From an uncultured Verrucomicrobiota bacterium (lineage in GTDB: Bacteria > Verrucomicrobiota > Verrucomicrobiia > Methylacidiphilales > CAMAQI01), in the NCBI GenBank assembly GCA_964555235.1, contig CAZKRU010000007.1, positions 10,359-74,358 of the forward strand: DNA of 64,000 nt, written 5' to 3'. Positions 13,952 to 42,711 of this stretch are shown in pieces. The notes under the pieces were generated by a model. It was not told the origin of the DNA. It saw only the letters and a program-made list of their open reading frames with translations, and did no database searches. Position numbers and translations under genes: made by a program. Position 1 is the first letter of the stretch. Each line of letters starts with the position of its first letter.

Positions 13952-14035
13952 AGGAATGGCACTATAGCCCAAGATTGAAAAAATGCTAGTCAATGATTTG
14001 AATGCGCCAAATGGGAGGCAATTTCCAGTCAATCT

Positions 14036-14063
14036 ATTTTATATGACATATACTATAGGTCAT
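14036..14063 (-). other. Left junction (attL): dif-like site with XerD arm and spacer identical to the right copy but a degenerate XerC arm
   Basis: Minus strand ATGACCTATAG-TATATG-TCATATAAAAT; 14034-14052 is identical to 42682-42700. Confidence 0.8.
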
Positions 14064-14141
14064 ACAGTAGTCCCCGAAACCCGCTTTTATATTTATTTGA
14101 AATTACACGATTTGCAAGATGAAGTTTAAAAATTCTTAAAC

Positions 14142-14160
14142 ATAGTATATTACTATTATA
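14142..14160 (-). promoter_or_regulatory. Leftward TATAAT (-10-like) overlapping palindromic operator ATAGTA-TAT-TACTAT
   Basis: Minus-strand TATAAT at 14160-14155; operator 14142-14156 in the AT-rich left end of the island; no clear -35. Confidence 0.45.
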
Positions 14161-14289
14161 GGCGTTCCTCAATTAAATTTTCTAAATTTATTTTCAGCAT
14201 CTACCAATGAAAACATTCAATCGCAAGAATGCAATTAGAATGTAACCACTACTACTATACTATGATAGTATTTTGTCGCTTGCGTGGTC

Positions 14290-14814
14290 TTACAGGGTAA
14301 AGGTATGGGTTTTGTGCTCGTCGCCGTAAATCATCATGAAGTCGGTATCGACGCCTTTCAAGGGAAACCTCAAGGAACAGGCTCTAACGCTAATAGGATT
14401 TAACGGGCAGCGATCGAGGTAATTCCAAGGAGCATAATCGAAGCGGATCACTGAGCGATGCTGGAAGTACATTCCCTTGTGAAAGGTCTTCTTGGTGCGA
14501 TAACCGTATTTTTCCGGGTTCTGTCCAAAGCGCCTTTTGTGGAACTCGATGTCGATACAAAGGTCGGTAACGATTTTCTTGTACCGGGACTCATAAGGCT
14601 GAATGAGATACCGGTGAAGCTGTGGAGAAATATAGCATTGCTCGGCCACATGGAAATATTCGCAAATAAAGGAGATGTCCACGAAGTCTTTTAGGAGGTG
14701 GACGGTTTTATCCGACTTACCGATATTCTCGTGAACAAATGCATTTTCGTTCTGGGGAGGCAAATCCGAGTTTGAATTGCTCTTGGGAAAGAAGGATTTG
14801 ATGAAGTCTTTCAT
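14290..14814 (-). CDS. Hypothetical protein, last gene of the parA operon
   Basis: 174-aa ORF translationally coupled (ATGA overlap) to the AAA ATPase. Confidence 0.65.
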   Translation of the reverse strand: MKDFIKSFFPKSNSNSDLPPQNENAFVHENIGKSDKTVHLLKDFVDISFICEYFHVAEQCYISPQLHRYLIQPYESRYKKIVTDLCIDIEFHKRRFGQNPEKYGYRTKKTFHKGMYFQHRSVIRFDYAPWNYLDRCPLNPISVRACSLRFPLKGVDTDFMMIYGDEHKTHTFTL

Positions 14815-15719
14815 GGGATGATCTGGAATTTGAGGTTTTCGTGCGAGTATTCGAGTTTGCCGCTGTGGTGCTGTTTGGAGAGGATCCCGTCAGCAATCGC
14901 TTTGCGGATGTGAAATTGAATGACGTTACGGAGATTTCTGGCTCCGTATTTGTCATCATAGCCCAAGTCCAGAAGCCGGTTGAGAGCGACAGCGGAGGCC
15001 GTGATCTCAAAACCCTGCTCTTCACGCAAGCGTCTAATTTCTTTATCAACCATCAGGGCGCAAATACGGCGTTGGTCTTCAAGGGTAAGCTTGTTATAGA
15101 CAATCATGTTCCTGAATCGGCGAATGAATTCGGGTCGGAACTCTCTGGCGACTTGTTGCTGAACATAGTCGCGGATCCGAGAAAAAGGAACGTAGTGGCT
15201 ATCCACGATTTTCGCGGAGCCGATATTGGAGGTCATGATGAGGTAGAAATTCCTCAAATCGATCGTTTTACCATCCCCAACCGTGATCCGTCTCTCGTCG
15301 TAGATCTGGAGAAATAGATCTCGAATGTCTGGATGAGCCTTTTCTATTTCGTCGAATAGGATTACGCCTTTCGTGGCATTGCCTAAACTGCGGCCCAGTC
15401 GGCCAATGTTCCCCGTATGATCCCCGATGAAGTTTTTGATCGAGTCTTGGTGTTTGAATTCTGACATATCAAACGGGTAATAGCACTCAGAGTCAAATAG
15501 GACTGCGGCGATTGCCTTTGAGGTTTCGGTTTTTCCGACTCCGGTAGGCCCAAGAAAGAAGAAGCATCCTTTCGGCTCCTCGGACGAGGTAAGATTGAGC
15601 TCCCCTTGAATAATGACTTGAGCGACCTCATGAATAGCATCGTCTTGACCGATGACCCTAGCTCTGAGTTTTGCCTCAAAGGAGTTGATGCGATCGATGA
15701 ATTCAGGCTCAAGCTTCAT
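14811..15719 (-). CDS. Stand-alone ClpA/ClpB D2-type AAA+ ATPase
   Basis: RVIGQDDAI, FLGPTGVGKTE (Walker A), DMSEF, ILFDEIEKAHP (Walker B), FRPEF, GARNLR; no N-domain or D1. Confidence 0.88.
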   Translation of the reverse strand: MKLEPEFIDRINSFEAKLRARVIGQDDAIHEVAQVIIQGELNLTSSEEPKGCFFFLGPTGVGKTETSKAIAAVLFDSECYYPFDMSEFKHQDSIKNFIGDHTGNIGRLGRSLGNATKGVILFDEIEKAHPDIRDLFLQIYDERRITVGDGKTIDLRNFYLIMTSNIGSAKIVDSHYVPFSRIRDYVQQQVAREFRPEFIRRFRNMIVYNKLTLEDQRRICALMVDKEIRRLREEQGFEITASAVALNRLLDLGYDDKYGARNLRNVIQFHIRKAIADGILSKQHHSGKLEYSHENLKFQIIP

Positions 15720-16050
15720 TTGTGCTTTCAGTGGATAGGTTTTTTTTCTTGAATCGTGCACGTCGCCGGTCGTTCTGAATGACTTTATCGGAATCCTCCT
15801 TTAGGGTGGAATCGACCGCACACCGATTGATGCAAAGATTGATGAGCTGCGATTGGTTGAGCTTTATCCCAAAGTTAAGGAGCGTTGCATCGATCTCCTT
15901 GAGTTTCTGTAGCTGCTCCTCCTGTGCGACAACTTGGAGCCGCGCAGAGGTTGCGCTGGTTAAATAGGTTTGAGTCCTGGGGTGGTTTGAGGGCGCATAG
16001 AACCGAATCACTTTTTTGAGACCGGCAACGTGTTTTTTATCGAGGGCCAT
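15709..16050 (-). CDS. Small basic protein downstream of parA (candidate centromere-binding or regulatory partner)
   Basis: 113 aa; RBS AAAGGA; position next to parA; LNQSQLINLCI helix is compatible with a ribbon-helix-helix fold (inference). Confidence 0.55.
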   Translation of the reverse strand: MALDKKHVAGLKKVIRFYAPSNHPRTQTYLTSATSARLQVVAQEEQLQKLKEIDATLLNFGIKLNQSQLINLCINRCAVDSTLKEDSDKVIQNDRRRARFKKKNLSTESTNEA

Positions 16051-16093: not shown

Positions 16094-16654
16094 TTATTTA
16101 ATGGCAAGCGTCAAGATCTCCATGACGATCGACTGGAGTTCAATCTTTCCGGATTTGGAGAGCGAGCTCCAGCCTTGCATTACGGAATGCTGATACTCCT
16201 GCTTGCGGTGGAGTTTGGATTCAAGAGCCGAGACCCCCAAGCTCTCCGCGAATTCATCGATGTTGTTGGAAAGGATTGTCCCCTTCTCCACTTGGTTGAA
16301 GATGAGGTAGAGCGGGGTTTGAACCATGTCACGGATCCTCCGGATCGTCGCACTGGAGGTTTTCAAATCTGCTGGGGAAGGAGACGTGACAAGGAACAGG
16401 TGAGTCGCTTGATGAACCGCTTTGATCCAAGCCGCACTGTCGAAATCCGGAGGGGTATCAACAAATGCGATGTCGGAATCATTTTGAGGCTGATCTGGAG
16501 CAACTTGCTGCCACCACTCGGTTGCAGTCTGCTGCTTGTCGCAATCGATAATTCTGACTTGTTTCTTGAGGTGGTGCAGCGCGAGAGCGCACCCGACCGT
16601 GAGGGTAGTTTTTCCGACGCCGCCTTTGCCGTTGACGAATGTAATGTACTTCAT
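16094..16654 (-). CDS. parA: ParA-family ATPase (short, type Ib-like)
   Basis: KGGVGKTT deviant Walker A, IIDCDKQ, FVDTPP. Confidence 0.9.
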   Translation of the reverse strand: MKYITFVNGKGGVGKTTLTVGCALALHHLKKQVRIIDCDKQQTATEWWQQVAPDQPQNDSDIAFVDTPPDFDSAAWIKAVHQATHLFLVTSPSPADLKTSSATIRRIRDMVQTPLYLIFNQVEKGTILSNNIDEFAESLGVSALESKLHRKQEYQHSVMQGWSSLSKSGKIELQSIVMEILTLAIK

Positions 16655-16725
16655 TTGAGACGAATCCTTTTGGTTAAGAGTTAAAGAGGCGATTCGTTCT
16701 CGCAAAAGCTTACTAAGATAGTAGG

Positions 16726-17886: not shown

Positions 17887-19452
17887 CTATTCCTTTTCCG
17901 ACAAATCCTCAGCCGTCTCACAATCCGCATCATCAGGCCTCGGTGCAGTGAACCCGGTGGGAAGAAGCTTGGTTTTGCTGTATCCTTTTTCGCAGTGAAT
18001 CATGTAGCACTCAAATCGCTTGAGTCTCCGTAAAAGCTCATGGTGCACTTTTGGCTTCCACGCTTCCTGTTTCGAGGTCGACCGCTTACCGCCAGACCAA
18101 GAGACAGAGTGATTCCAGTCTTCTTTTTCTCCCAGTCGCTCAGAGGCTGATTTCGCCCCGTAGGTGTTGGCAGCCTTGAAAACCAGTTCGTTTGAGAGAT
18201 TGAGGAGGGTTTCCTCTTTGGCGTCATCGCCGATGCGATTCTTGATCGAGGATTCACCTTGGGTAAGGAAAAGAGCTGTGGCGTAGAATTCACGAATCAT
18301 GGCAAGGGCCTTATAAATGGCCATTCCGTCTTTATTCTTGGTCATGATATTCTGGGCCTCGTCTGCAACGTAGATAATCAGGTTCTTTCGCACCCGGACT
18401 TTTTGCGGGAGGGAGGCACGAGAGAGGGCGTGTTCTGCATACTGATTGAAGATGAGAGTCTCGATCGCTGCCTTGGATCTGGAAAACTCCGGAGGAACCG
18501 AGACGCAAAGAATTTTACCGTCATCGATCATTTCGATCCGAGCATTTGGATTCTCCGATGAAAAAACCTCGACGAGTGCGGGATGGGTGTAGGGCTCAAG
18601 CGAATTAGTGATGGTAGTGAGATGTCCGCCACGTTCTTCTTCTGGGATGCCGATAAACTTTTCGGAAAAATGGTTGAAGATGTCGTTGGCTTGGTTTCCG
18701 TCGTAAACGTTATTTTCTTTAAAAAGCCGGTCGGCATGAATCGCCAGTTGATTCAGTTTCTTCTCAAGAGTCGAAAGTGAGGTGAGGGTGCGGAAGAGTT
18801 TGTCTAAGGTCGGAGCCTCATTGAGAATCCGGAAGAGATTGATTCCATTTTTGATGTGGAGGTAGGCCATGCTCTTGAAGTGATCCGAGGATCCACCAGA
18901 ACCGATTCGACCTTGAGATTCGGCAGTATCGATAATTGCGGCCGCATAAGTTTCAGCAAGGATGATCGGATTCCCGATGAGGTTCATAAAGAATTCCGGT
19001 CGAAAGGCCGGATTGTGAACGGTGCGAGTACGAACGACGAGCGGCTTGCTCATCATTTTGAAATGCTTGGCCATCGCGAGAATCATTTCTTGCTCGTGAC
19101 CTTTGGAACAGGTGAAGACGCATCCAAAATCCGGACACCGCTGAAAGAGCTGCGGTAATATCGTACAAAGCCCCACAGCGGTCTTTCCGGAGCCGGTCTT
19201 TCCGGTAACGAGCCATCCACGAATAAAGTCTTCGAGTGTCCAGCTCATGTTCCCAATGACGCAGACGACTTGTTTAAGTCGGTCCGTCTGGGTGACGGTT
19301 CCATCTCCGAAGCACCCCCATGCAAACCAAGTGGCCATGATGATGAAGAGATACGGCACAAAGAAGAACATCCCTCCGAAAACGTCCCAGAGGACGAAGG
19401 CTGCCGCGCCAAAGACGAAAGCGAAAAGTCCTGAGAAAAGCTTCTGTTTCAT
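17887..19452 (-). CDS. virD4: Type IV coupling protein (VirD4/TraG-like)
   Basis: Two N-terminal TM helices, GWLVTGKTGSGKT Walker A, YVADEAQN Walker B, LFLTQG...NLSNELVF. Confidence 0.85.
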   Translation of the reverse strand: MKQKLFSGLFAFVFGAAAFVLWDVFGGMFFFVPYLFIIMATWFAWGCFGDGTVTQTDRLKQVVCVIGNMSWTLEDFIRGWLVTGKTGSGKTAVGLCTILPQLFQRCPDFGCVFTCSKGHEQEMILAMAKHFKMMSKPLVVRTRTVHNPAFRPEFFMNLIGNPIILAETYAAAIIDTAESQGRIGSGGSSDHFKSMAYLHIKNGINLFRILNEAPTLDKLFRTLTSLSTLEKKLNQLAIHADRLFKENNVYDGNQANDIFNHFSEKFIGIPEEERGGHLTTITNSLEPYTHPALVEVFSSENPNARIEMIDDGKILCVSVPPEFSRSKAAIETLIFNQYAEHALSRASLPQKVRVRKNLIIYVADEAQNIMTKNKDGMAIYKALAMIREFYATALFLTQGESSIKNRIGDDAKEETLLNLSNELVFKAANTYGAKSASERLGEKEDWNHSVSWSGGKRSTSKQEAWKPKVHHELLRRLKRFECYMIHCEKGYSKTKLLPTGFTAPRPDDADCETAEDLSEKE

Positions 19453-20235: not shown

Positions 20236-20529
20236 TTAGAGTTTGATGAGGGTCGGCTTCACGGTTTTCCGGAGGTAGTAATAGAGTTTCTTATCTCCGT
20301 CTGGTCTAGAAATGGGACATACCCATCCTTCGAGGTGAACTACCGTGCAGGGTTCAGTTTTGTTTCCTTCTTCATCCTCCGTTGAGTCGATGAAATAAAA
20401 CCCCTGAATCTTCTCTGGAGGAAAGACGAAGAAATCAATTTCGACGTGCTTTGAAGGAAGGGAAGATTCGCTCTGTTCCGCTGAGGTTTTGACTCGCGGC
20501 GTGATTTTCGTGTTCGGGTCGGGTTCCAT
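20236..20529 (-). CDS. Hypothetical protein
   Basis: 97-aa ORF overlapping the relaxase 3' end and filling the gap to the next gene. Confidence 0.45.
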   Translation of the reverse strand: MEPDPNTKITPRVKTSAEQSESSLPSKHVEIDFFVFPPEKIQGFYFIDSTEDEEGNKTEPCTVVHLEGWVCPISRPDGDKKLYYYLRKTVKPTLIKL

Positions 20530-21664
20530 GGGCTTGTTTCCTGATTTGTTGATGAACTACGGGGTTGATCGGTTGAAATTGGTTTTGCGACGTGCGAACG
20601 TCTTTGATCTGGCGTTTGAGCTCCTTGATCTTCCGGAAGCGTTCCATCTGTTTTTGTCGGATCGAGTCGAGGGTGATTTGTTGGGCGGCCTTCGAGACGG
20701 CTTTTTCGAGAGAGGTGGGGCGATAGCCCATAAACCTCATGGCCTGCTTCTTGATGGAGTTTTTGACCCGGATCCGGCGTTCGGATTTTATCTCGGTCTC
20801 GATGGCTTTGATTTGCTGATATTTGGCGAGAATGACCTTTTGCTGGGACTTGAATTCATTCCAGCGCGGGGTTCCGGGGCCGATGGTAGGAGAGGGCCGG
20901 ATCCGCGGTGGACGTGGAGCAAAAACAAACCGGTGACCTTGGGCGTGTTTCTGAACCCGCTCTTGGACATGAGGATCCTCGATCTTCTTTTCCCAGAAGC
21001 GTAGTTGGGTGGCGAGGGATTCTTTAAGGAAGTTGAGTTTGTCCTCTTGGCCGTTATCAATCTTGTTTTTGAGCTGACCGGAGAAAGAGACGAACTGGCC
21101 GCCTTGGGTTCTGGGGTGAACAAAGACGTGGGCATGGAGGTTATCGGTGTCGTGATGAAAGCCATAGGTGTACCCCAGAGAGTCGCCTTTGTGGAATTGA
21201 TCGGTAAAGTTCCGCATGGTCCGTTTCATGCACTGGTGAAGGACAGCCTGCGGGTTGATTCCCTTGGCAACGAGTTTGTCGTGGAATTCCTTCGACATCG
21301 AAAAGACGAGCCTGTGGTGATCCTTTTTCGTTTTTGGGAATCGGTTGGAGTGGACTTTCCACGCGCGGAGGATGCGAGTTCGTTTTTCCTTGTTGGATAA
21401 ACTCTCGAAATGATCGAACCCGCCTCCGGATCTGCGGGAGGCGGCCGTCCGGATGAAACCGGCAGCATGGAGCTCTCCGAATTCTTCTTTGGAGAGATAG
21501 TCGATCCCATCTCCGGGTGAAATCTTTGGTTTGACCTCTTCACCGGCGCGGCGAGCTCTGGCGCGGTCGGCGTAATGTTTGAGGTCGGAACCCTCGATCT
21601 GGTATTCCGGATCGAAACCGATACCGGAATACTTCATGACGTGGACAATGATGCCATGACTCAT
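20435..21664 (-). CDS. HUH relaxase (MOBP-like)
   Basis: HHRLVFSMS (motif II-like), GFHHDTDNLHAHVFVH (HUH motif III), N-terminal tyrosines (KHYADR, IDYLSK), basic C-terminus; start uncertain (21664 or 21685). Confidence 0.82.
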   Translation of the reverse strand: MSHGIIVHVMKYSGIGFDPEYQIEGSDLKHYADRARARRAGEEVKPKISPGDGIDYLSKEEFGELHAAGFIRTAASRRSGGGFDHFESLSNKEKRTRILRAWKVHSNRFPKTKKDHHRLVFSMSKEFHDKLVAKGINPQAVLHQCMKRTMRNFTDQFHKGDSLGYTYGFHHDTDNLHAHVFVHPRTQGGQFVSFSGQLKNKIDNGQEDKLNFLKESLATQLRFWEKKIEDPHVQERVQKHAQGHRFVFAPRPPRIRPSPTIGPGTPRWNEFKSQQKVILAKYQQIKAIETEIKSERRIRVKNSIKKQAMRFMGYRPTSLEKAVSKAAQQITLDSIRQKQMERFRKIKELKRQIKDVRTSQNQFQPINPVVHQQIRKQAHGTRPEHENHAASQNLSGTERIFPSFKARRN

Positions 21665-21698
21665 GAGAGTTGACCCTCCGCCCATATCGTAGTATGGT

Positions 21699-22043
21699 AT
21701 GAGCATGAGAACAGTGTATCTCGCCGAGAGCGACAATTATCTTTTGGAGTCTCATCGGATAATGGCTGAGCGCATTCAAGCCGACCGTTCACTTTTACGA
21801 TTTCCAAGAAAACAAATCGCAAGATGGCTTGAAAATGATCTTTCGTGGAGTTCAAGACTGGCAACTGAAGAGTGGGTGACTTTACTAAAACCGGAGAATT
21901 TTGAAGAGTTGATTCATGCAATGACACGGGACGACGATGAAGGACAACGCCTTCGTTCGAGCTCTCCTTTTGGCGAGGGCATCCTTTCGCGTGAAGAGAT
22001 CGACGCTCTTTTTGATGAGGCTTATGCATCGGTCCCAAGTTGA
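21699..22043 (+). CDS. Putative antitoxin partner of the DUF6036 protein
   Basis: SHRIMAERI...EEWVTLL...GQRLRSSSPF, typical of genes preceding DUF6036; overlaps the downstream gene. Confidence 0.65.
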   Translation: MSMRTVYLAESDNYLLESHRIMAERIQADRSLLRFPRKQIARWLENDLSWSSRLATEEWVTLLKPENFEELIHAMTRDDDEGQRLRSSSPFGEGILSREEIDALFDEAYASVPS

Positions 22044-22596
22044 GCATCTGATTCGGGAGATTTCCAAGTTTACCGGCGATAAAGAATTCTTGATCGTGGG
22101 AAGTCAGTCGATCCATGGCATGATGAATTTCCCTCCAGACGTTTTTAAAAACTCGGTAGAGTGCGATTTTTATAGGGAAGATGCGGCATGGATTCAAAAG
22201 GTTCGAAAAGCTTTTGGGCTTGAAAGCGAGTTTTGGAAGAGGAACCAGTATCACGCCGACCCCATCGGTGCCCATGTGGTCAAAATGCCTCCGGGATGGA
22301 AGGATCGACTCATCACGTATCAGATTGACGACATCATTTGCAAAGTCCCTCAACCTTTGGATTTGGCGGCCTGCAAACTCATGGCGGGTCGAGAAAAGGA
22401 TCTGGTGTATGTGAAGGAGCTGGTGTCGTGGGGTTTCGTGAAGAAGGACGAATTGGTGGAGCGAGTTCGGACGATGGGATCGGCTGACGATCCGAACATC
22501 CACTTGAAGCTTCGTCGCTTTGACGAATATGAGACTCAAACTCAGAGAGTTCAAAGTAAGCATCGTCGAGATGGGCATCGGGGTCATCGGCTTTAA
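22024..22596 (+). CDS. DUF6036-family nucleotidyltransferase (putative toxin)
   Basis: MHRSQVEHLIR, FLIVGSQSIHG, SVECDF, PPGWKDRL, DLAACKLMAGREKD; GAGG RBS before ATG 22024. Confidence 0.8.
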   Translation: MHRSQVEHLIREISKFTGDKEFLIVGSQSIHGMMNFPPDVFKNSVECDFYREDAAWIQKVRKAFGLESEFWKRNQYHADPIGAHVVKMPPGWKDRLITYQIDDIICKVPQPLDLAACKLMAGREKDLVYVKELVSWGFVKKDELVERVRTMGSADDPNIHLKLRRFDEYETQTQRVQSKHRRDGHRGHRL

Positions 22597-33234: not shown

Positions 33235-33293
33235 GAGAAGCCTCTGGATTGTGGGTTGGAAAACGTTGTTTCATATCATAGTATGGTAGTATG

Positions 33294-34547
33294 TTACTGT
33301 AATTCTGGGGTGCCCCCTCCGAGTTGTTTCATGACATCCCGTCGACGAGAGGCCATCTCGCTCGGAGAAGGGAGCGCGCGGGGCTCAAAGCGTGGAATTC
33401 CGCCAGAAGCAAATCCTCTTTGATCCATGATCTCTGGATCCAAGGAGGAAGAGGGAACCTCAGGCCCCATGCCCAAGGAACCGCCAGAGCCGCCCCCACT
33501 GAGGGGAGATGGAGGGCCGCCAGCGCGTGGCATTCGTGTCACTTTTCCGGTACTGGAAGAGGGAGCAGGAAGCCCCTTGGCGGAGGAGCTGGAGCCGAAG
33601 TTCCAATCTCCAGAATCGCTGGAATCGGTGCTTCCGCCTCCAGTGGGGCTCCCCCCTCCGCCCCCCAGTTTACCCAAAAGACCTTTGAGGCTTTCAGCGA
33701 GCTTACCCATGGAATTAGCAAGGGGAGCGACTGATGCGGCCATGAAAGCAGCACTGCCGACCGCTCCGAAAGCCCCACTTCCTCCGGAAAGAATCATCCC
33801 AATGGAAATTGGAACGGTGAGATAAAGAAGATTGATGAAGATGGCGAGAAGCAAAAAAGCTCCAAGCATTTTAGCCAAAATAGCAGGCGCGAGTGCTGGA
33901 GCGACCACTGCAACTCCAAGTGCCACTCCAGCCGCAGTAAGGACTACTGTGCCAATTTTCGCGATAAAAATATCGGCGACAGCGGTTCCAATCGGCCAGA
34001 GAAGGACTCCAAAAGTGGTCATCCACGTTTTAATGGCGATGCTCTTGGTTGCGGGAATCTGAAACATGCAAATGGTCAACGGTGCAAACGCAATCATCAC
34101 CGAAAGAGCGTATGGCTGGATCCATTTGAGTATCCAATACCCGACGAAACCTAAAGCTTGAAGACAGTTCAAGATGACAACGCTCAAACCATTTTTGAGA
34201 TCTTCAAGCCATGTGCCTTCTTCGACTTCCGGAATTGGTTTTCCCCATGCCGTTTTAAAAGTATCAATTTCTGATTCAATGGTTTTACCCAGTTCTTCAA
34301 AGGATTTTTGCCCGTTGATAACCATCGACGGATAACCAGCCAAAAGAGCGCAGCAAAATGCGGCCGTGGCGATTCCGAAAGTCATGTTTTTGATGTCGTC
34401 TTGGTGGGCGAAAAAAGAATAGGCCAAACCGCACGAAGCAAAGATAAAGGCAAACGGAAGAAGTGCGTCATAGACGACCATGGCCATTTTGTATTCATGG
34501 CCGCCTGTCATTGCCAAAATCGGAAAAGTGGTTAGACTAAGAGGCAT
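33294..34547 (-). CDS. VirB6/TrbL-like polytopic membrane protein (start uncertain)
   Basis: Several TM helices, FAPLTICMFQIP...LLWPIG, Gly/Ser-rich C-terminal tail. Confidence 0.75.
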   Translation of the reverse strand: MPLSLTTFPILAMTGGHEYKMAMVVYDALLPFAFIFASCGLAYSFFAHQDDIKNMTFGIATAAFCCALLAGYPSMVINGQKSFEELGKTIESEIDTFKTAWGKPIPEVEEGTWLEDLKNGLSVVILNCLQALGFVGYWILKWIQPYALSVMIAFAPLTICMFQIPATKSIAIKTWMTTFGVLLWPIGTAVADIFIAKIGTVVLTAAGVALGVAVVAPALAPAILAKMLGAFLLLAIFINLLYLTVPISIGMILSGGSGAFGAVGSAAFMAASVAPLANSMGKLAESLKGLLGKLGGGGGSPTGGGSTDSSDSGDWNFGSSSSAKGLPAPSSSTGKVTRMPRAGGPPSPLSGGGSGGSLGMGPEVPSSSLDPEIMDQRGFASGGIPRFEPRALPSPSEMASRRRDVMKQLGGGTPELQ

Positions 34548-34737
34548 GAGCAAAATCCTTGCGACGTTGATGGTTGGCGTGCTTTTGGGTGGAGGCACCG
34601 TGTACGTTTTCAAAGTTCAAGCGGACGAAAAAAGGCGAAAGACAGCTTCCGATGCTTGGCAACAAGGCGAGCGCGAAAAAGCTGAAATGTACAAAAAAAT
34701 CGATCAAATGACTAAGGATGGGAGTATTATGAAGTAA
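34546..34737 (+). CDS. Antisense 63-aa membrane peptide homologous to the VirB5 C-terminus (candidate entry exclusion, TrbK-like)
   Basis: MSKILATLMVGVLLGGGTVYVF TM helix + WQQGEREKAEMYKKIDQMTKDG, versus WAQGEKEKTEMYKKIDKLTKEG in the neighbouring gene; AAGAGG upstream. Confidence 0.7.
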   Translation: MSKILATLMVGVLLGGGTVYVFKVQADEKRRKTASDAWQQGEREKAEMYKKIDQMTKDGSIMK

Positions 34738-34739
34738 TC

Positions 34740-35534
34740 TCATTTGTAGATTCCCTCTTTAGTGAGTTTATCGATTTTTTTGTACATTTCCGTCTTTTCC
34801 TTTTCTCCCTGAGCCCAAACTTTGGCCGCTTGCTTTCCTTGCTTGGCCTTTTGGGTTTCGTAGAGAGTTTTGGTGGCTTGAAGTTTTTGGTAAGCGTCAT
34901 CAGCTCGTTTTTTAGCGTCAGCGAGCTTTGCTTGAAGGGCGGCAAGGTCGGCCTGTTTTTGGCGTTGTTCGGCTTCGTCTGCCGGTGTTTTTGAGGTCAC
35001 GCGATCAATTTCAGTTTGGATTTCCTTTGCGTCCTGTTCGGATTTTTCCATGACATCGGCAAAGTTTTGGAAAGAATTTTCGAGGGTGTTGAGGGCCGTC
35101 ATCGGATCGTAATTGGAAAAGTCGATATTGCCGGATTGGAGATCCTCCAAGGAGGCCATGTTAATCGGCGAACCCATCACCTTCTGAGTGGAAGAGGCGA
35201 GGGAAGAGGCCTGTCCTGCGGTTTTGCTGATTTCTGTGAAGGTTTTACCGAGCTGAGAAGTGGAGGAACTCCCCAAGAGTTTAGAATTCATGAGGGAAGC
35301 GATCTTGGTAGGGTCACCTGCGACTTGTTTGGCGGTTTCAAGGAGCTTCACGGCTTCTTGGGCTTTCGTGAGCTGCTCCTGAACGTTTTTGAGCTGTTCA
35401 GTCCATTTTGCGAGAGTTTCAGTATGCTGGATTTGTTGACCTGTTATTTGCGCTGACTGCAACGCTTGAGATGCGTCGCCCTGGGCGAAGACTGCTACTG
35501 GGAAAAGAATGAGAATGAGGTATAAAGATTTCAT
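34740..35534 (-). CDS. VirB5/TrbJ-like protein
   Basis: Signal peptide (AVFAQ), LAKWTEQLKNVQEQL coiled coils, located upstream of the VirB6-like gene. Confidence 0.7.
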   Translation of the reverse strand: MKSLYLILILFPVAVFAQGDASQALQSAQITGQQIQHTETLAKWTEQLKNVQEQLTKAQEAVKLLETAKQVAGDPTKIASLMNSKLLGSSSTSQLGKTFTEISKTAGQASSLASSTQKVMGSPINMASLEDLQSGNIDFSNYDPMTALNTLENSFQNFADVMEKSEQDAKEIQTEIDRVTSKTPADEAEQRQKQADLAALQAKLADAKKRADDAYQKLQATKTLYETQKAKQGKQAAKVWAQGEKEKTEMYKKIDKLTKEGIYK

Positions 35535-35566
35535 TGGAGCACCCCGTTTTTTTGCGTTACTTCTTG

Positions 35567-36148
35567 ATGATGAATCAGCAAGAGATGATTGATGTTTTCA
35601 GAAAAGTTGATGAAAGGCTGAGCTCCATTCCTAAAATTTGCGGAAAGGGGTGTTCTTTTTGTTGCTATCAACCCATTAAGTGTACGGATCCAGAATGGGA
35701 AATGATTCAGGATTTTATCGAAAAGATGACGGATGCTGTTTTGATTCAAAGAATCGTCCGGAACGCTGTTTCTTGGTTTGATTGTTTTGATCGAATTGTT
35801 CCCAAAAACATCACCGTGGATCAATTTCAACTTGAAGCATATGAAAAAAAGATGCAGGAACATCGAATTGCCTGCCCATTTCTGATCGATGGGATTTGTT
35901 CGATTTACTCGGTAAGACCGTTTGTGTGTCGTGGGCATAGTGTTAGGGAGTCTGTGGATTTGTGTTCTCAAAACCCACTTCGGATGGGAGATGGGGAATC
36001 GAGGAGTATTGCGCTAGCTGCTCTGAAAGAAATTCATCATAGGATCGGAGTGGTACTCTACGGACGTCTATCAATTCGGCTTCTGCGACTTTTGAAAATC
36101 GAGATTGGTCGAAAGATTTTAGTTGGTGCTGGCTTTTTAAAGAGGTGA
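35567..36148 (+). CDS. YkgJ-family cysteine-cluster (Fe-S/Zn) protein
   Basis: CGKGCSFCC ... CPFLIDGICSIYSVRPFVCR. Confidence 0.85.
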   Translation: MMNQQEMIDVFRKVDERLSSIPKICGKGCSFCCYQPIKCTDPEWEMIQDFIEKMTDAVLIQRIVRNAVSWFDCFDRIVPKNITVDQFQLEAYEKKMQEHRIACPFLIDGICSIYSVRPFVCRGHSVRESVDLCSQNPLRMGDGESRSIALAALKEIHHRIGVVLYGRLSIRLLRLLKIEIGRKILVGAGFLKR

Positions 36149-36240
36149 TCGAAACCCCTTCCTCGATCAAAAAGGTTGACACTATGATCTGTTCACGATT
36201 CATGATTTGAAGTTCTCCTCGATGGTTTTGGCTTTCATTA

Positions 36241-36501
36241 TCAACTCCTATTTCTGGATGTGAACTTGTTGACGAGATTGATCATGAATTCCCAAAGCTT
36301 GACGGTGGAGAGCGCAAAAACAAAGACGCCCAAGGCTGAGGAATAGTCTTTGGCGAGGCATAGGCCGCCAATGACAAATCCGGAGCCAAGGAGAACGAGG
36401 TAGGGCAAGCTCAAAACCCTCTCCACATAGGGCGCAATCGCGACCATGAAAGCTTCAAGCCTCTTGAAGAGTGTGATCGTCCAGTGTGATTTCTCAGTCA
36501 T
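36241..36501 (-). CDS. Small membrane protein
   Basis: 86 aa with two hydrophobic segments. Confidence 0.5.
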   Translation of the reverse strand: MTEKSHWTITLFKRLEAFMVAIAPYVERVLSLPYLVLLGSGFVIGGLCLAKDYSSALGVFVFALSTVKLWEFMINLVNKFTSRNRS

Positions 36502-36817
36502 GGCGAGGCTCCATCAACGCGCCAATGACTCCGACTTGGGTTGCATCGAGCTTCCCATTGGCAATAAAGACCTGTGCGCCCCGAAACGCACTGTTGGATA
36601 GGGAGGCATCAAGCGCAAAGGTTTTATCGTCACTCCATTTCCCACGAAAAACGAACGCTTCCTCGGCTCCCCGCTTAAGAACGAGTTGATGTTCATAAAT
36701 TTCGATTTGTGCTCCTTTCCCAGAAGAATTCCCCCATTTTCCGACGAGTTTTCCCGGGTCGTTCGTGGTGCAGGCGGAGATAAGAAGCAGAGCGATGAAT
36801 CCACAGATGATTTTCAT
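36494..36817 (-). CDS. Small lipoprotein
   Basis: Lipobox LISAC; KLVGKW motif; AAGGAG RBS. Confidence 0.65.
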   Translation of the reverse strand: MKIICGFIALLLISACTTNDPGKLVGKWGNSSGKGAQIEIYEHQLVLKRGAEEAFVFRGKWSDDKTFALDASLSNSAFRGAQVFIANGKLDATQVGVIGALMEPRHD

Positions 36818-36831
36818 TTGTTCTCCTTTGG

Positions 36832-37290
36832 TTATTTGGCGGGTTCTTTGATGGTTACGACGACTTCGTGCGGTACCTGTTTTACGTTTGAATTGGCAGG
36901 AAGGGGGGCCTGAACCGGATAAAGTTTGGTCTGAAGCTTTTCTGAATCTTTGTCCTCTTGGGCTTTATGGACGTTTTGAACGAGATCATAACTGTTTTTC
37001 GAGGACTCTTTATTGCCGATTTCGGTGCCGGTCACAAATGCCTCGGCTTCACGTTTTTCAGCGGCTTGATTGGCGAGATAGGTGCTTCCCAGTGCGGTGA
37101 AACCGTGTGAAGCCACGTCGATCGGATCCACTTTCCCAGTTTGAATTATGCTCTTTGCGGCTCCTACTGTCCCTCCTAGTGCAGTATTGCTCACAAGGGT
37201 TCCGGTTGGCGTGGTGCATCCAGAGAGGATGAGTGGCAGACAAAGGAGGGATTGCCAGTAAGGGAATTGACGCTTATAGGTGGTTTTCAT
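36832..37290 (-). CDS. Glycine-zipper-like conjugative lipoprotein
   Basis: Lipobox ILSGC; ALGGTVGAA. Confidence 0.65.
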   Translation of the reverse strand: MKTTYKRQFPYWQSLLCLPLILSGCTTPTGTLVSNTALGGTVGAAKSIIQTGKVDPIDVASHGFTALGSTYLANQAAEKREAEAFVTGTEIGNKESSKNSYDLVQNVHKAQEDKDSEKLQTKLYPVQAPLPANSNVKQVPHEVVVTIKEPAK

Positions 37291-37560
37291 ATGGATACCG
37301 AATTAGAGAAGCGGCTCAAAGGAGTTGAGGTTTCGATGCGCGTGATGATGGAACGCCAGATGAAAATGGAAGCGTACCTCATGGCAATGATCGGGTACGT
37401 GACCAAGTCTCCCGGGAATCGAGACATCGCGCTTGTTGAAAATGCTGCGGATGGAGTGCTCATCGAGATCCAGAAGGAGAATCAATTAAGATTTCAAGAC
37501 GTTTTAAAGCACTGGCAGGAGATTTGCCAAGAGACTGAGCCACAAGAATCTTCGCCATAA
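37291..37560 (+). CDS. Antisense hypothetical protein (89 aa)
   Basis: MDTELEKRLKGVEVSMRVMMERQ...; its ATG abuts the CAT of the divergent gene. Confidence 0.5.
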   Translation: MDTELEKRLKGVEVSMRVMMERQMKMEAYLMAMIGYVTKSPGNRDIALVENAADGVLIEIQKENQLRFQDVLKHWQEICQETEPQESSP

Positions 37561-37690
37561 GATCGAGTTTTTTCTCAATTCGAGAAAGTTGAACTTGAGT
37601 AAAAGGCTCACCTAATTTTCGTTGTATCTTAACGAGGTGACCGAGTCCGACGGTTTTGTTTTTTGGAATCATATTTTTTTCCAGTAGAGG

Positions 37691-38491
37691 TTATTTCTTT
37701 TGGTATTTCGTTGGGATCCGTCCTTGAATCTTCTCGGTGTTTAATTTCGGATAGCCGCCTGAGTTTTCCATGGATTTATATTTCTCGTATCCCAAGTATC
37801 CGTTGCCGATTGCAGATAGACCTAAAGCACCGGCAGTTCCAAAAAGCATCTTTCGTGCTGACGCCAATTTGCTTTTGGTGTCTTGAAGCTGATTATTAAC
37901 GTCATCGAATTGAGCCTGAGAAATACTTCCGTTAGATTTACTATTGTTGGCGGCAGCCTGAAGCGCGGCAATTTGAGCCTGAAGGCTGGCAATGGTTGCC
38001 GCATCCGTAGTTGCTTGGGCCTGAAGCGTAGCGATTTGCGCTTTGAGGCTTGTGATTTCAGCCGTTAGATTGTCAATGGAACCATCAACCTCGATGACGG
38101 TGAGATTTCCCGAGTGGGCTGGGTAGGCAACGCTATTGTTTCCCCCGGATTGAATCAAAACGTTACCAGTGGCATTTGCCGTGGGAGTGTAGATAAAGTT
38201 ATACGCGATAGGAGCCGATACCCCTGTGGTTCTTGAAATGGTGTCTGTTCCTGATCCCACGGTGCACGAACTGTTCTCTGTTGCCAAAGTAGTTCCATTC
38301 CCTGAGGTTTCTGTCACGGTGACTTTGTAGATTTTACTTGTTGAGAAATTGATATTAGCGGAGGTGAAGCTTGTTGAAGTGCTACCGCTCGCTGTATTCC
38401 AAGTGACGTTAATGAGTGTCGTCGTATCGCCAAAAGCCCCGAAGAGCTGAAGCGGCAAAATTGTGGCAAGGATAAGAAGTTGTTTGATCAT
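37691..38491 (-). CDS. Secreted Ser/Thr-rich beta-domain + coiled-coil protein (possible adhesin)
   Basis: Signal peptide; S/T/N-rich N-terminal half; LTAEITSLKAQIATLQAQ heptads; C-terminal hydrophobic Gly/Ala segment. Confidence 0.65.
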   Translation of the reverse strand: MIKQLLILATILPLQLFGAFGDTTTLINVTWNTASGSTSTSFTSANINFSTSKIYKVTVTETSGNGTTLATENSSCTVGSGTDTISRTTGVSAPIAYNFIYTPTANATGNVLIQSGGNNSVAYPAHSGNLTVIEVDGSIDNLTAEITSLKAQIATLQAQATTDAATIASLQAQIAALQAAANNSKSNGSISQAQFDDVNNQLQDTKSKLASARKMLFGTAGALGLSAIGNGYLGYEKYKSMENSGGYPKLNTEKIQGRIPTKYQKK

Positions 38492-38985: not shown

Positions 38986-41589
38986 TCATGCAGTTTGAAG
39001 CTCAGGCTCATTTTTGTAGGTCTTACGTTTTTCAAACTTACAAGTGCCACAAAGAGGATGAGACGAACCCATTTGGTAATAGGTGAACCAACTTGAATTA
39101 TAGTTGTTTTGCTCCGGCATTTCGTAGGTCATCACAGCTTCCTGTGCCGATTCCGGAATGGATGGAAATCTTTGGCAAATGTCTTGGATGTCTCGAATGT
39201 CGTTCTGACGAAGAAGGAAGAGAACCTTGGAGTTTCCTAATATCGTGCTTGCGATGGGTGAACGAGAAAATTGGTCGTACTGTTGAACAGCAAATCCTGC
39301 AACAGTGGTGTACTTACGAAATCGAGCGTAGCATTTATCAAGAGTTTTATCTGAGCCCGGAGTCGAGAGAAATGGCTTTCCTTCATCAATGATGAATCCC
39401 TTAGGGTCTTTTCGTGGGCGTCGCATAATTTCTGCGGTTTCGAAGTGAGAAATCATGTAGCCAACGAGCTGCTTGAGCTGCGAATCATCGTCGCCAAGAT
39501 TCGCGAGCTCCCAGTGGCTTACTCGGTCACTCTTAGGGAGATTTCGCACACCATCGAATAGACCTCCTTTGGAGCCTCTGTGCTTGCACCATGAATTGAG
39601 GACGGTTCGTATAAATTCGAGCCGTTTACTGTCATGGGATCCGATTGGAAAATCCAACGATCCCACAAAAGAGGAGAGAGTCGGATATTCGTCCGGTTTA
39701 AGCGTTGCAATGAAAACGTCTCGAATATAGCCCTTGGTCTCGGGCATTTTCATGAAATTGACGGTCATTTCTTCGTTGACCTGAGATTCCATCAGCTTTA
39801 CGGCATCGGGATTGACGACTCTCAATTCTCGGATTTGATTCCACGCATCAAGGAAATCGGCATCGAGTTCCGATTGAATGAGAACTTGCCAATAGTTATA
39901 GGTTACGAGTGCTTCTTTTGCGTATTTGAAGCGGATCCCGCTATCTCGTTTTGTCTTTTCCTGATAAATGTCATCGTAAAGGCGAATGCAGTATTCCTCG
40001 ATATAAGATTTGATGATGACTTTCTCTTGCTCTGAATCGAAAAGACCGAACATCCGGGTCATCAACGAAGAGAGATCCTCCAGAAAGGCTGAAGAGAAGG
40101 GGAGTCCGTTGGTATCAAATGGCCCAAAGCAGAGGTTAGAATTTGGATGAATTACCTTTGGTTGTGAACCAAAGCTTCGACTGAACTGGGTGAGGCTTCC
40201 GCCTTCTTCGATTAGAACGATATATCTCAAAAAGCACATCATTTGCATGAGGACATCTTGAAGTAAATGTGACTTTCCACCGCCAGTCATACCAATCATG
40301 GTGAAGGAAAGAGGCGTTCCGTTTTTGAAGAGAGAAACCGTTGCAACGCCATCATTGTGATTCTTGTAGATTAGGTTTCCGTCGCGATCGCCATGGAACG
40401 ATGCGTCAATATTGACGGTACGAGCAACCATATCGTCGTTCATCTGAATTACGTGATCCCGGTATTTTCCAAAAGGGAATCCGGGTTGGATCTGGCTAAA
40501 GATCTTTCGAGTTGTGGCAGGCATTGATGCCACGTAATAATCAGCATCGTCCCATTCATGGATTGCGTCCTTGAGGACTTGTGTTTTGCTGGCAAGCCCG
40601 ACTGGGTTTTTATCCCAGACGTGAAAGACCATCATCCAGTCGAAGAGGCGATAGCCATTGGCAATATCAGCGATGATGCGAGTCTTGAGGGCAGAGGCGG
40701 TAGCGGATTCAACATCGGAATCTTTGTCTGTGCGGTTCTTTTCTTTCTGATGCTGCTTGAGCTTCTTCCGGGTATCAACCGGATAGATGGTCGAAACGAT
40801 TCTAAAATCATTGATATTGAGATTCGAAAGCTTGTAGATCATTCCCGGAGTGAGATTGCGGGGTGGGCGACTCAGGATGATGCAGTTGTGATAATAGCCA
40901 TCGTAATGAAACCCAAAAGCGGGCATGTAACGTTCGCCAGATTTGAATCCATCACGAACGCACTGAGAGATGACGGGGAGATTTGAGTCGAACTTTTTGA
41001 GCGCATCAAAAAGACTTCGCTCGGCGAAGGAGGGATTATAAAACTCCATCAAATGACGGATCATTTCCTCTCCGGACATGGCTTCCATGTAGGCACCGGT
41101 TCGTCCCATCGAATTGTCAAACGAAGAGATGACGCTATCGAGCTCCCGATGAGCTTCCTCATAGAGCATTGTTTCATGTTTAAGACGATCAGCTTCATTG
41201 AAGCCCAAAGAAATACTGCCACTCAGCTTTTTACATGAGTAAAAGCGTGTTCGTAGTCGCTTGAGGAGGTGTTTTTCGTTCTGCTCATTGAGGTCTAAAA
41301 GAATATGATCTCGGTACGCCGTCGATGCGTCATGAGTGCCGCAGGATTCAGTTTGCTGTGCATACTGCATGAGCACCGGGGCCTCTTGATGGAGGAAGTC
41401 CAAGTGAATCTGGTAACCCATGTTCAAGCTGGAGTTTCTAAGCCAGTTCTTGGCACCTTCCCGGAAGAGATTCTTCATGAAGTCGCTGGCGTTGTAGAGA
41501 TCAACGCCAAAGACCTCGGCCCCAACAGCCACATGGGTGAGGGGAGAGCCGAAGACAAGAGCATTGCTATGGAGATAGCACTCCTTCAT
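38986..41589 (-). CDS. virB4: VirB4-like T4SS ATPase
   Basis: 867 aa; IGMTGGGKS Walker A, LIEEGGS, FIIDEG Walker B, RFRKY...AVQQ, ILGNS. Confidence 0.88.
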   Translation of the reverse strand: MKECYLHSNALVFGSPLTHVAVGAEVFGVDLYNASDFMKNLFREGAKNWLRNSSLNMGYQIHLDFLHQEAPVLMQYAQQTESCGTHDASTAYRDHILLDLNEQNEKHLLKRLRTRFYSCKKLSGSISLGFNEADRLKHETMLYEEAHRELDSVISSFDNSMGRTGAYMEAMSGEEMIRHLMEFYNPSFAERSLFDALKKFDSNLPVISQCVRDGFKSGERYMPAFGFHYDGYYHNCIILSRPPRNLTPGMIYKLSNLNINDFRIVSTIYPVDTRKKLKQHQKEKNRTDKDSDVESATASALKTRIIADIANGYRLFDWMMVFHVWDKNPVGLASKTQVLKDAIHEWDDADYYVASMPATTRKIFSQIQPGFPFGKYRDHVIQMNDDMVARTVNIDASFHGDRDGNLIYKNHNDGVATVSLFKNGTPLSFTMIGMTGGGKSHLLQDVLMQMMCFLRYIVLIEEGGSLTQFSRSFGSQPKVIHPNSNLCFGPFDTNGLPFSSAFLEDLSSLMTRMFGLFDSEQEKVIIKSYIEEYCIRLYDDIYQEKTKRDSGIRFKYAKEALVTYNYWQVLIQSELDADFLDAWNQIRELRVVNPDAVKLMESQVNEEMTVNFMKMPETKGYIRDVFIATLKPDEYPTLSSFVGSLDFPIGSHDSKRLEFIRTVLNSWCKHRGSKGGLFDGVRNLPKSDRVSHWELANLGDDDSQLKQLVGYMISHFETAEIMRRPRKDPKGFIIDEGKPFLSTPGSDKTLDKCYARFRKYTTVAGFAVQQYDQFSRSPIASTILGNSKVLFLLRQNDIRDIQDICQRFPSIPESAQEAVMTYEMPEQNNYNSSWFTYYQMGSSHPLCGTCKFEKRKTYKNEPELQTA

Positions 41590-41912
41590 TTGGGTACTTC
41601 CTGTTGGGAAAAAGGATTGGATTGAGTTTTGGGCTTCTCATATTCCCAGTCTCTTTTCATCAAGGACTCGAAGAAGTCGATGTCATTTGCCGCTGGTTTG
41701 TCGTGGCGCAGGAGAAAAATCCAAGCCAGTACCGGCACCATCAGGAGCGAAGAACAAACCAAGGCCATCATGACCGAGGACTTGATCCAAACCGCAAGAA
41801 AAATTCCTAACGAGGCAAGTCCAGCAATCACAATGATCTGGATGTTGACGAAATCAACGCCCTTGAACTTTCCTTCGGAGTCGTCCTGATAGTAGCTCGG
41901 AATGCGGCTCAT
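41586..41912 (-). CDS. VirB3-like membrane protein
   Basis: Two TM helices, ATGA-coupled to virB4; DDSEGKF.G and HDKP motifs. Confidence 0.65.
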   Translation of the reverse strand: MSRIPSYYQDDSEGKFKGVDFVNIQIIVIAGLASLGIFLAVWIKSSVMMALVCSSLLMVPVLAWIFLLRHDKPAANDIDFFESLMKRDWEYEKPKTQSNPFSQQEVPK

Positions 41913-42070
41913 GATCCCACGACAAAGAGCATGAAGAAGAAGGCAAAAACGAGTGAGGAGATCATCACGATCTTTGCCATTCGTTTGTTTTCGCTTCCAT
42001 CTTCAGATTTCACAAAAACGAAGCCCGAGATCATTGAGGTGAGGGCACAGATTGCAAATAGGGTAGCCAT
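41909..42070 (-). CDS. 53-aa two-TM microprotein
   Basis: Manual translation MATLFAICALTSMISGFVFV...IVMISSLVFAFFFMLFVVGS; coupled to the VirB3-like gene. Confidence 0.5.
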   Translation of the reverse strand: MATLFAICALTSMISGFVFVKSEDGSENKRMAKIVMISSLVFAFFFMLFVVGS

Positions 42071-42072
42071 AT

Positions 42073-42393
42073 TTAGATTCCTTTTTGTTGATTTTGACGA
42101 AATGAAGTTAAGAGTTTAGGATCCACTTGCTGGTGGTATTCGACTTTTGGAATCGCCTTCGACATTCCAGCTTTTTCAAAAAAGCCCTTCATCACGGGAA
42201 TTGAAAATGCAATTCCAGCACCGGCGAGAACCCCAAGAGCTCCGCTCATGATGTTTCCGCCATCGATCATGAACCAGCCCTTGACCATCACACATGCGCC
42301 GGCGATGAAGAATACGGATGCAATGGCGATAAGAACCTCGCCAGAGACATCTTGAAAACTCGAAACATCGGCGAGTAATACTGAATAGATCAT
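42073..42393 (-). CDS. VirB2/TrbC-like pilin
   Basis: Two hydrophobic helices joined by a short loop (KGWFMIDGGN); upstream of VirB3/VirB4. Confidence 0.65.
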   Translation of the reverse strand: MIYSVLLADVSSFQDVSGEVLIAIASVFFIAGACVMVKGWFMIDGGNIMSGALGVLAGAGIAFSIPVMKGFFEKAGMSKAIPKVEYHQQVDPKLLTSFRQNQQKGI

Positions 42394-42653
42394 GATTTTC
42401 CCTTTTTGGTGTGTTCGTTGATTAACAGGTTGGCGGCATCAAAACCCATGTGGTAGACGAGATGGAGCCCGACCTTAAAAAGTTTCCGTGCCATATCCGC
42501 TCGTTCCACAACGGGGTAACGCTCGAGGATATGCGAGAGCATTTCGATGGAACTGGCATCGAGGGTTACCCCCGCGATGTATTTCTCGCTCCGATCGACC
42601 GGCTTTTTTCTTTCCTCTGACTTTTCCCCAAGATTTTCTGATTGTTCTGACAT
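42390..42653 (-). CDS. Small RHH-like putative regulator, first gene of the tra operon
   Basis: YIAGVTLDASSIEMLSHIL...RADMARKLF strand-helix-helix; starts ~30 bp inside the right att site. Confidence 0.55.
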   Translation of the reverse strand: MSEQSENLGEKSEERKKPVDRSEKYIAGVTLDASSIEMLSHILERYPVVERADMARKLFKVGLHLVYHMGFDAANLLINEHTKKGKS

Positions 42654-42683
42654 GAGATTTTTCTCTCTTGGGTATCAGAGGCT

Positions 42684-42711
42684 ATTTTATATGACATATA
42701 TTGTGCGCAGT
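42684..42711 (-). other. dif: Chromosomal dif site / attR (XerC arm - spacer - XerD arm)
   Basis: Minus strand ACTGCGCACAA-TATATG-TCATATAAAAT versus E. coli dif GGTGCGCATAA-TGTATA-TTATGTTAAAT (8/11 identity in each arm); apparent G-to-C skew switch nearby. Confidence 0.82.

Follow-up and report, generated by a model that had tools for sequence, protein, structure and literature searches.

A putative conjugative island without a recognisable recombinase at the dif site of a Verrucomicrobiota bacterium, a candidate Xer-hijacking element

Known Xer-hijacking elements (IMEX) are mostly small phages of Proteobacteria, with a single large case that carries a type IV secretion system (T4SS). Their target, dif, is where chromosome dimers are resolved. 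Here we analyze a 28.6-kb island lying at the dif site of an uncultured Verrucomicrobiota bacterium, within a stretch of 64,000 nucleotides (the window) that corresponds to C7:10359-74358 of the source genome, G000, a 4.11-Mb draft of 156 contigs that is 97% complete. We hold with moderate confidence that it is an IMEX, probably a plasmid-like conjugative element whose attachment site (attP) carries an exact copy of the central region and XerD arm of dif and which was integrated by host Xer. The gonococcal genetic island (GGI) of Neisseria is described as a 57-kb integrase-less IMEX with a T4SS at dif (PMC5357621, PMC9226527). TLCphi and EludIMEX-1 are presented as integrase-less elements at dif with an attP made of one good arm, a matching central region and a degenerate XerD arm; TLCphi follows a XerD-first pathway and supplies XafT to activate XerD (PMC5357621, PMC6744903, PMC9226527). 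In the accounts of PMC5357621 and PMC9226527, the XerC side is retained and the XerD side divergent in all of TLCphi, GGI and EludIMEX-1. LME-1 of Legionella pneumophila is reported as a phage-like element with a 22/29-bp dif mimic, using XerL and a symmetric site; its integration leaves an intact and a modified dif, and the modified site experimentally lowers excision (PMC9765430).

The original prediction had proposed that an exact 19-bp direct repeat bounds a block of about 28.6 kb. Both copies of this repeat, CTATTTTATATGACATATA, proved exact, shuffles expect 0 matches, and no third copy was found across all 156 contigs of G000. The repeats and the two junction sites are as follows.

14034 to 14052, no strand: left copy of the 19-bp direct repeat CTATTTTATATGACATATA (exact match)
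42682 to 42700, no strand: right copy of the 19-bp direct repeat CTATTTTATATGACATATA (exact match)
42684 to 42711, minus strand: intact dif (attR), with the chromosomal XerC arm ACTGCGCACAA (42711..42701), the central TATATG and the element-side XerD arm TCATATAAAAT (42694..42684)
14036 to 14063, minus strand: hybrid site (attL), with the host-side XerD arm (14046..14036), the central TATATG (14052..14047) and the element-derived non-canonical arm ATGACCTATAG (14063..14053)

The minus-strand sequences are ACTGCGCACAA-TATATG-TCATATAAAAT (42711..42684) at the right junction and ATGACCTATAG-TATATG-TCATATAAAAT (14063..14036) at the left, so that an intact dif bounds the island on the right and a hybrid dif-like site on the left. 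The junctions share the XerD arm, the central region and two more bases, and identity ends at the XerC-arm boundary. The attachment site of the island, as reconstructed from the two junctions, is ATGACCTATAG-TATATG-TCATATAAAAT; compared with the host dif, it matches 11/11 positions of the XerD arm, 6/6 of the central region and 4/11 of the XerC arm. A near-palindrome, ATGACATATA-C-TATAGGTCAT, lies within the hybrid site at 14043-14063. As in an IMEX, the insertion is at the chromosomal dif, with a dif on one flank and, on the other, a dif-like hybrid that has part of the 28 bp in common with it.

The claim that the right repeat extends into dif was examined against other genomes. Arms were assigned following PMC2731167, in which the XerC arm comprises the 11 leading bases and the XerD arm the 11 trailing ones, and the Escherichia coli reference GGTGCGCATAATGTATATTATGTTAAAT was taken from the table of that paper. 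Both arms of the right site are indeed 8/11 identical to this reference, as had been stated, and the XerC arm ACTGCGCACAA is the same as the one given for Shewanella oneidensis in PMC2731167. A degenerate pattern, ACTKCGCACAATATATGTNATNTNAAAT, allowing up to 3 mismatches, was run on 61 genomes of the same order (G000 included). It matched exactly once in 38 of them and twice in none, and the reversed pattern, used as a control, gave 0 matches in all 61; the undegenerate 28-bp site has matches in 9/61. Four sister-genus genomes were missed by ACTKCGCACAATATATGTNATNTNAAAT solely owing to another type of XerD arm (TTCTGT...), and a search with the XerC arm and central region recovered one site in three of these four. 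Within G000 there is no other copy of the 28-bp site at up to 6 mismatches, and no better dif exists in the assembly.

The position of the site points the same way. In 5/5 single-contig relatives, its distance to dnaA is 49.3, 53.8, 48.3, 44.4 and 53.6% of the chromosome. This measure superseded a comparison, in 8 relatives, of the skew within ±20 kb of the site, which was noisy and went from positive to negative in 4/8 and from negative to positive in 0/8. In the chromosomal flanks of the island the GC skew is +0.049 (1-14033) on one side and -0.132 (42712-62711) on the other, the sign flipping across the site, and the right-flank gene run at 45400-59052 is on the minus strand, the leading strand by local skew. 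The island itself has a skew of +0.112, with the same coding-strand bias as the backbone of a paralogous element of G000 (ICE2, see below); its strong positive skew is intrinsic to the element family. Because ICE2 shares this bias, the cumulative skew maximum should not be over-read and it is the flank-to-flank change that counts. Single-copy conservation, position opposite dnaA and flank skew are three independent lines of evidence, and they establish that the right site is the genuine dif of the lineage. Sites had been predicted in three Verrucomicrobia genomes in 2011, according to PMC3025954; the present comparison pins down the dif site of this order.

The second half of the original prediction, that no recombinase can be recognised in the island, also withstood the searches. 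A six-frame genome search with Phage_integrase (PF00589) gave 12 matches in G000, none of them on C7, and Resolvase (PF00239) gave 0 matches in G000 at E<=1. Pfam scans of 46 island open reading frames (ORFs; 36 + 10) returned no tyrosine, serine or DDE recombinase or transposase family, and tblastn of the host XerC, the host XerD and a Xer-like protein of the relative G004 against the window gave nothing below E 0.1. The XafT-like family, which we take to be DUF3653, had no match in the Pfam scans either. The island is thus without the own integrase that would make it an integrative and conjugative element (ICE); like an IMEX it has no recognisable recombinase, with some of its ORFs remaining orphans. 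The host provides XerD (329.9 bits on TIGR02225, just over the equivalog cut-off), a XerC-like paralog and FtsK with a gamma domain, the three genes that the prediction proposed to look for. With these the host machinery is complete. XerD and the XerC-like protein are the two Xer paralogs of G000, and a third was not found in the genome. We infer that the island uses host Xer.

Gene assignments were made with Pfam and NCBIfam, and the content of the island is listed below.

14290 to 14814, minus strand: 174-aa ORF of no recognisable family (Pfam, NCBIfam; no Atlas match)
14811 to 15761, minus strand: ClpB-like AAA+ ATPase (AAA_2 + ClpB_D2-small), a backbone gene of the element family (Pfam and relatives)
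16094 to 16705, minus strand: ParA-type partition ATPase (Pfam)
17887 to 19452, minus strand: type IV coupling protein, VirD4/TraG-like (PF02534, 33 bits, over the cut-off)
20435 to 21736, minus strand: divergent candidate relaxase of the MobA/VirD2 type (PF03432, 18.1 bits against a cut-off of 24.6)
21937 to 22596, plus strand: DUF6036 nucleotidyltransferase (Pfam)
23487 to 25049, minus strand: Toprim/DUF3991 primase (Pfam)
24868 to 26325, minus strand: 485-aa ORF with a C-terminal DnaA_N domain, candidate replication initiator (weak Pfam match)
26339 to 27340, minus strand: ArdC-type antirestriction protein, ArdcN + zincin peptidase (Pfam)
27519 to 28529, minus strand: 336-aa ORFan (self-match only among 5.8 billion proteins)
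28557 to 38491, minus strand: divergent mating-pair-formation gene block, most of it with sister-element homologs (Pfam and relatives)
30648 to 31673, minus strand: TrbI/VirB10 (passes the cut-off)
38986 to 41589, minus strand: VirB4/TraC-like T4SS ATPase (TraC/VirB4 models, E 2e-25 and 6e-19, below curated cut-offs)
41586 to 42393, minus strand: two ORFs of 108 and 106 aa that look like small membrane proteins, likened to VirB3/VirB2 solely from their position (sequence look and relatives)
42390 to 42653, minus strand: 87-aa ORF, 30 bp from the XerD arm, conserved only in the dif element of G004 (35% identity)

According to this inventory, the island is predicted to encode conjugation, replication and partition functions and to be plasmid-like and transfer-capable. 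Among the functions originally named, ParA, the coupling protein, the Toprim primase and ArdC were recovered, as was the T4SS through TrbI/VirB10 and the VirB4-like ATPase, and the relaxase and "Rep" gave weak matches only. The proposed toxin-antitoxin-like pair was not confirmed: judged by sequence, the 106-aa and 108-aa ORFs look like small membrane proteins, and their homologs lie upstream of VirB4 in related elements. Conjugative elements are defined in PMC5587801, as described there, by a relaxase, a coupling protein, VirB4 and mating-pair-formation genes; on that scale the coupling protein and VirB4 are present, the relaxase reaches 18.1 bits, and TrbI is the sole mating-pair-formation gene over a cut-off. 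The T4SS genes are too divergent for an F-type assignment. The candidate relaxase has 108 homologs, some with PF03432 and with source names of Verrucomicrobiota, Verrucomicrobiae or Terrimicrobiaceae; the three closest are 56-60% identical. Four iteron-like repeats of 22-27 nt lie at 25789-25983 inside the Rep-like 485-aa ORF. NCBIfam gave no match for 8 family-less island ORFs, and no significant PDB match emerged for the sequences of the 87-aa ORF, the Rep-like ORF or the relaxase. A guess that the 87-aa protein is a ribbon-helix-helix protein is unsupported (weak AlphaFold model, pLDDT 64; no Foldseek match at E<=0.001), and a 314-aa minus-strand ORF overlapping the DUF6036 nucleotidyltransferase (21937-22596) looks spurious.

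The organization of the presumed regulatory sites was compared with the boundaries of the island. The copy of the motif at the left end is the following.

14142 to 14184, minus strand: island-specific palindromic operator-like motif ATAGTATATTACTAT, overlapping a promoter-like site (TAGAAA-18-TATAAT)

With up to 3 mismatches, ATAGTATATTACTAT has 14 matches, all in the island, against 0.18 expected, and with up to 2 mismatches 6/6 matches genome-wide fall inside it. Its copies mark intergenic operon starts in the island. Only 30 bp lie between the T4SS operon and the XerD arm, ATAGTATATTACTAT is absent upstream of that operon, and the minus-strand promoter-like site at the left end faces outward across attL. 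We infer that, in a circular element, transcription from this site would cross attP and enter the 87-aa ORF and the T4SS operon. Such a layout fits the proposed boundaries and a circular functional form, and the expression of the transfer genes may be coupled to excision.

Related elements were found inside and outside G000. ICE2, the paralogous element, is split over C15 (from position 39678 to the contig end) and C5 (from the contig end back to position 41215), spans about 58 kb and is matched by 18/39 island ORF queries at 32-57% protein identity. Its ends are marked by a 55-bp direct repeat of the tRNA-Leu(gag) 3' end, and a tyrosine integrase lies next to the tRNA, whereas the island is at dif and has no recognisable recombinase. 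ICE2 and the plasmid CP007054.1 of Opitutaceae TAV5 share with the island a backbone of divergent T4SS, coupling protein, relaxase, ClpB-like protein and ArdC; the VirB4 of the plasmid is 23.5% identical to that of the island. ICE2 is without ParA, primase or Rep-like modules, and a homolog of the 87-aa gene was likewise searched for there and not found. VirB4 homologs with 23-31% identity are present in 23/104 genomes of the order (G000 included), and in the six cases checked they are not at the dif position. VirB4 searches found no close relatives of the element in genome contigs or metagenome contigs, nor in 400 other genomes of the class at E<=1e-120, and no relatives of the element were found in the viral contigs searched. 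The relaxase alignment gathered 15 metagenome loci at 30-43% identity with a common backbone; a XerC-arm-like match in one of them (L110; 1 mismatch, the only one among the 15) has no dif-like continuation and was discarded. Elsewhere in G000, relaxase and ArdC fragments lie by another integrase on C81 and relaxase copies lie on C57 and C10, which suggests further remnants.

The most informative relative is in G004, a genome of the same family and another genus. Its contig C162 carries a syntenic element, matched by 23/39 island ORF queries at 30-51% identity, that includes ParA, the primase, the Rep-like ORF and the 87-aa ORF. About 30 bp past the 87-aa gene we found ACTGCGCACAA-TATTTG-TTCTGTTGTAA, a full dif of that genus, in the same geometry as in the window. 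In G002 and G003 the dif reads ACTTCGCACAA-TATTTG-TTCTGTAGTAA and AATTCGCACAA-TATTTG-TTCTGTATTAT, respectively, with no island genes near either. The element-side arm in G004 fits the arm type of its own genus (TTCTGT...). Two members of the element clade therefore occupy the XerD side of dif, and in both the arm contributed by the element is fitted to the XerD arm of the respective host, which argues that XerD binding to attP matters.

The best candidate for the left junction in G004 is ACTTCTTCAGA-TATTTG-TTCTGTATTAA at C43:701-739, with 1 mismatch to a 17-base pattern (16 specified positions) for which we estimate about 0.08 such matches by chance. Outside this hybrid site lies a gene conserved in G000. 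At 220 bp inside it lies a gene for a 310-aa Phage_integrase/SAM_1 protein, a third Xer paralog that is present in G004 only among 5 genomes of the family and is 46-49% identical to the host XerDs. Beyond the XerD-like recombinase of this C43 locus (701-1894) come a zeta-toxin/ParD-like pair and copper-resistance genes of the CopA/CopB type, all named from sequence. C43 and C162 are unlinked in the G004 assembly, and a shared-homology comparison did not join them. If they were contiguous, the sister element would have its own Xer-like recombinase and the window copy may derive from it by loss. Other half-sites in G004 (C155, C121) are at chance level and without informative context.

The junctions suggest how integration by host Xer could proceed. 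CTXphi has its Holliday junction resolved by replication, on the other side. In the present case the element carries a partial dif mimic, as seen at the two junctions. Host XerD would bind the perfect arm and make the first strand exchange between attP and dif, activated either by an island factor or, as happens when chromosome dimers are resolved, by FtsK-gamma. XerC, held on the poor arm by cooperativity, could then carry out the second exchange; alternatively, replication could resolve the Holliday junction. The right site, a fully canonical dif, would keep serving the chromosome. The crippled left hybrid site should make excision rare, in line with what is described for the modified site of LME-1 (PMC9765430), and only in the circular form would the left-end promoter-like site reach the T4SS operon across attP.

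A more specific proposal, which we make tentatively and find rather less likely, is that the island is an IMEX of mirror polarity: a self-transmissible, replicating Verrucomicrobiota plasmid that mimics the XerD arm and central region and has discarded the XerC arm, integrates by a XerD-initiated or factor-aided pathway undescribed for any IMEX, and has its T4SS operon split from the promoter by attP. The sister element, with a captured xerD paralog, would then mark a transition from ICE to IMEX. If this is true, transcription of the T4SS operon would require the excised circle, a conjugative plasmid would need no integrase to become chromosomal, and either half of dif would be exploitable. 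The 28-bp attP and dif would form a substrate pair for asking whether XerD-first recombination tolerates a non-cognate XerC arm.

Several observations weigh against the main reading, a conjugative element integrated by host Xer. The replaced arm ATGACCTATAG has 4/11 positions of the XerC arm, and binding of XerC there is doubtful. The relaxase and VirB4 matches are under curated cut-offs, several island ORFs (174, 336, 164 and 155 aa) are orphans without a family, the cumulative skew maximum at the right site is partly element-intrinsic, and the G000 assembly is a draft of 156 contigs. In G004 the candidate junction is 220 bp from the extra XerD-like recombinase; the element family may use its own enzyme and the island copy may have lost it.

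This last point leads to the strongest alternative, in which the family targets dif as an ICE with its own Xer-like tyrosine recombinase, and the window copy has lost the gene and is stranded or reliant on chance action of host Xer. The third Xer paralog inside the C43 hybrid site fits this scenario, as does ICE2, whose tyrosine integrase at tRNA-Leu implies that integration modules are swapped within the element family. On the other hand, C43 is unlinked to the element contig C162, the window holds no gene remnant, G000 has no third Xer paralog, and the backbone ORFs of the island are long and without internal stops. In addition, the two elements agree at just 2/11 positions of their replaced arms, and arms so unrelated speak against a shared element-borne binding protein. 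We consider such a loss unlikely, if still a serious competitor.

Integration by host Xer could also have been an accident, in which the multimer-resolution site of a plasmid recombined once with dif to give a cointegrate with no adapted lifestyle. Plasmids commonly resolve dimers by Xer, as stated in PMC9226527, and the island has the plasmid hallmarks ParA, primase and a Rep-like ORF that contains iteron-like repeats. One would expect a resolution site to retain a usable XerC arm, however, and a second member sits at dif in another genus with the same geometry; the promoter layout across attP, for its part, fits regular cycling between circular and integrated forms. A single accident is therefore improbable.

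Still less probable is integration without Xer, whether relaxase-mediated, by homologous recombination over 19 bp or by a recombinase hidden among the orphan ORFs. Those of 174, 336, 164 and 155 aa leave room for such an enzyme, and relaxase-driven integration of ICEs has a precedent mentioned in PMC5587801; against this, the junctions match the arm and central-region architecture of dif base for base, and an independent relative is also at dif. An assembly artefact joining a free plasmid to a chromosome contig at a short shared sequence is very improbable even for a draft of 156 contigs, since both junctions lie within one 74.8-kb contig, the same right junction occurs independently in G004, and the shared sequence is just 19 bp, shorter than the overlaps that assemblers usually use.

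The chromosomal surroundings of the island were also inspected. In 29 relatives, among which an empty site was sought, nothing within ±1.5 kb of dif resembles the window flanks; these are not similar to the G004 contigs either, and the G004 flanks have no similarity to the dif loci of G002 and G003. On the left, the 364-aa ORF at 12938-14032 (minus strand) has a listed start codon that abuts the left repeat, and the outward promoter-like site of the island faces into it. It had been called a J-domain gene: a stretch resembling the HPD motif is there (...RRLHPD...), and Pfam gives no match. On the right, just beyond the intact dif, a 101-aa ORF of no family (42813-43118, minus strand) has a copy about 1 kb inside the tRNA-side end of ICE2 (window 42811-43153 against C5:42251-42593; 93% protein and 86% DNA identity), in inverted orientation with respect to the T4SS genes. 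The 42.7-45.4 kb region looks like terminus-region debris: it holds a methyl-accepting chemotaxis protein (MCP) signalling-domain ORF that reaches only 235 aa and, at 44650-45021, outside the island, a weak DDE_Tnp_1 fragment. Further out, 45488-46230, in a histidine-kinase gene (45400-47304), is 72% identical over about 750 bp to 48395-49137 in a neighbouring ORF, 2.9 kb apart. Left of the island, three dispersed repeat families of about 100-150 bp (5130-5290, 10337-10433 and 12773-12940) occur in dozens of copies with 78-95% identity on many contigs and look like REP or MITE elements.

Compared with the described systems, the island can be set beside GGI, which it resembles as a large, integrase-less T4SS island at the chromosomal dif, flanked by an intact dif and by a dif-like site that is modified. 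The difference is in polarity: difGGI keeps the XerC arm and central region and its XerD arm diverges, whereas the island keeps the XerD arm and central region, the opposite of attP sites of the GGI/TLC type. It additionally carries primase, Rep-like and ParA modules, and its host belongs to another phylum, the source names of its homologs being Verrucomicrobiota. TLCphi and EludIMEX-1 share with it one good arm and a matching central region, and again it is the XerD arm that is degenerate there and the XerC arm in the island. With LME-1 it has in common a partial dif mimic (22 of 29 bp in LME-1, 19 of 28 bp in the island) and the outcome of one intact and one modified dif. LME-1 is phage-like and uses the single recombinase XerL, unlike the island, which is conjugative and plasmid-like in a host with two Xer paralogs, XerD and a XerC-like protein.

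The original prediction of a new class was too strong, as an integrase-less T4SS island at dif (GGI) and a partial dif mimic (LME-1) are already described in PMC5357621 and PMC9765430. The literature on IMEX, dif and conjugative elements, on the gonococcal island and XerCD, and on Verrucomicrobia dif gave no described case of this combination, the supplementary attP collections of PMC9226527 standing outside this survey and being able to hold a replaced XerC arm. The nearest Verrucomicrobia lead is a speculative remark in PMC9241678 on extra xerD copies on Akkermansia genomic islands. In the survey of PMC5587801, 37 ICEs are given as lacking integrases, and such "integrase-less ICEs" may include Xer users. 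Relative to the published IMEX, what appears new is the replaced XerC arm, the full set of conjugation, replication and partition genes, and the host phylum.

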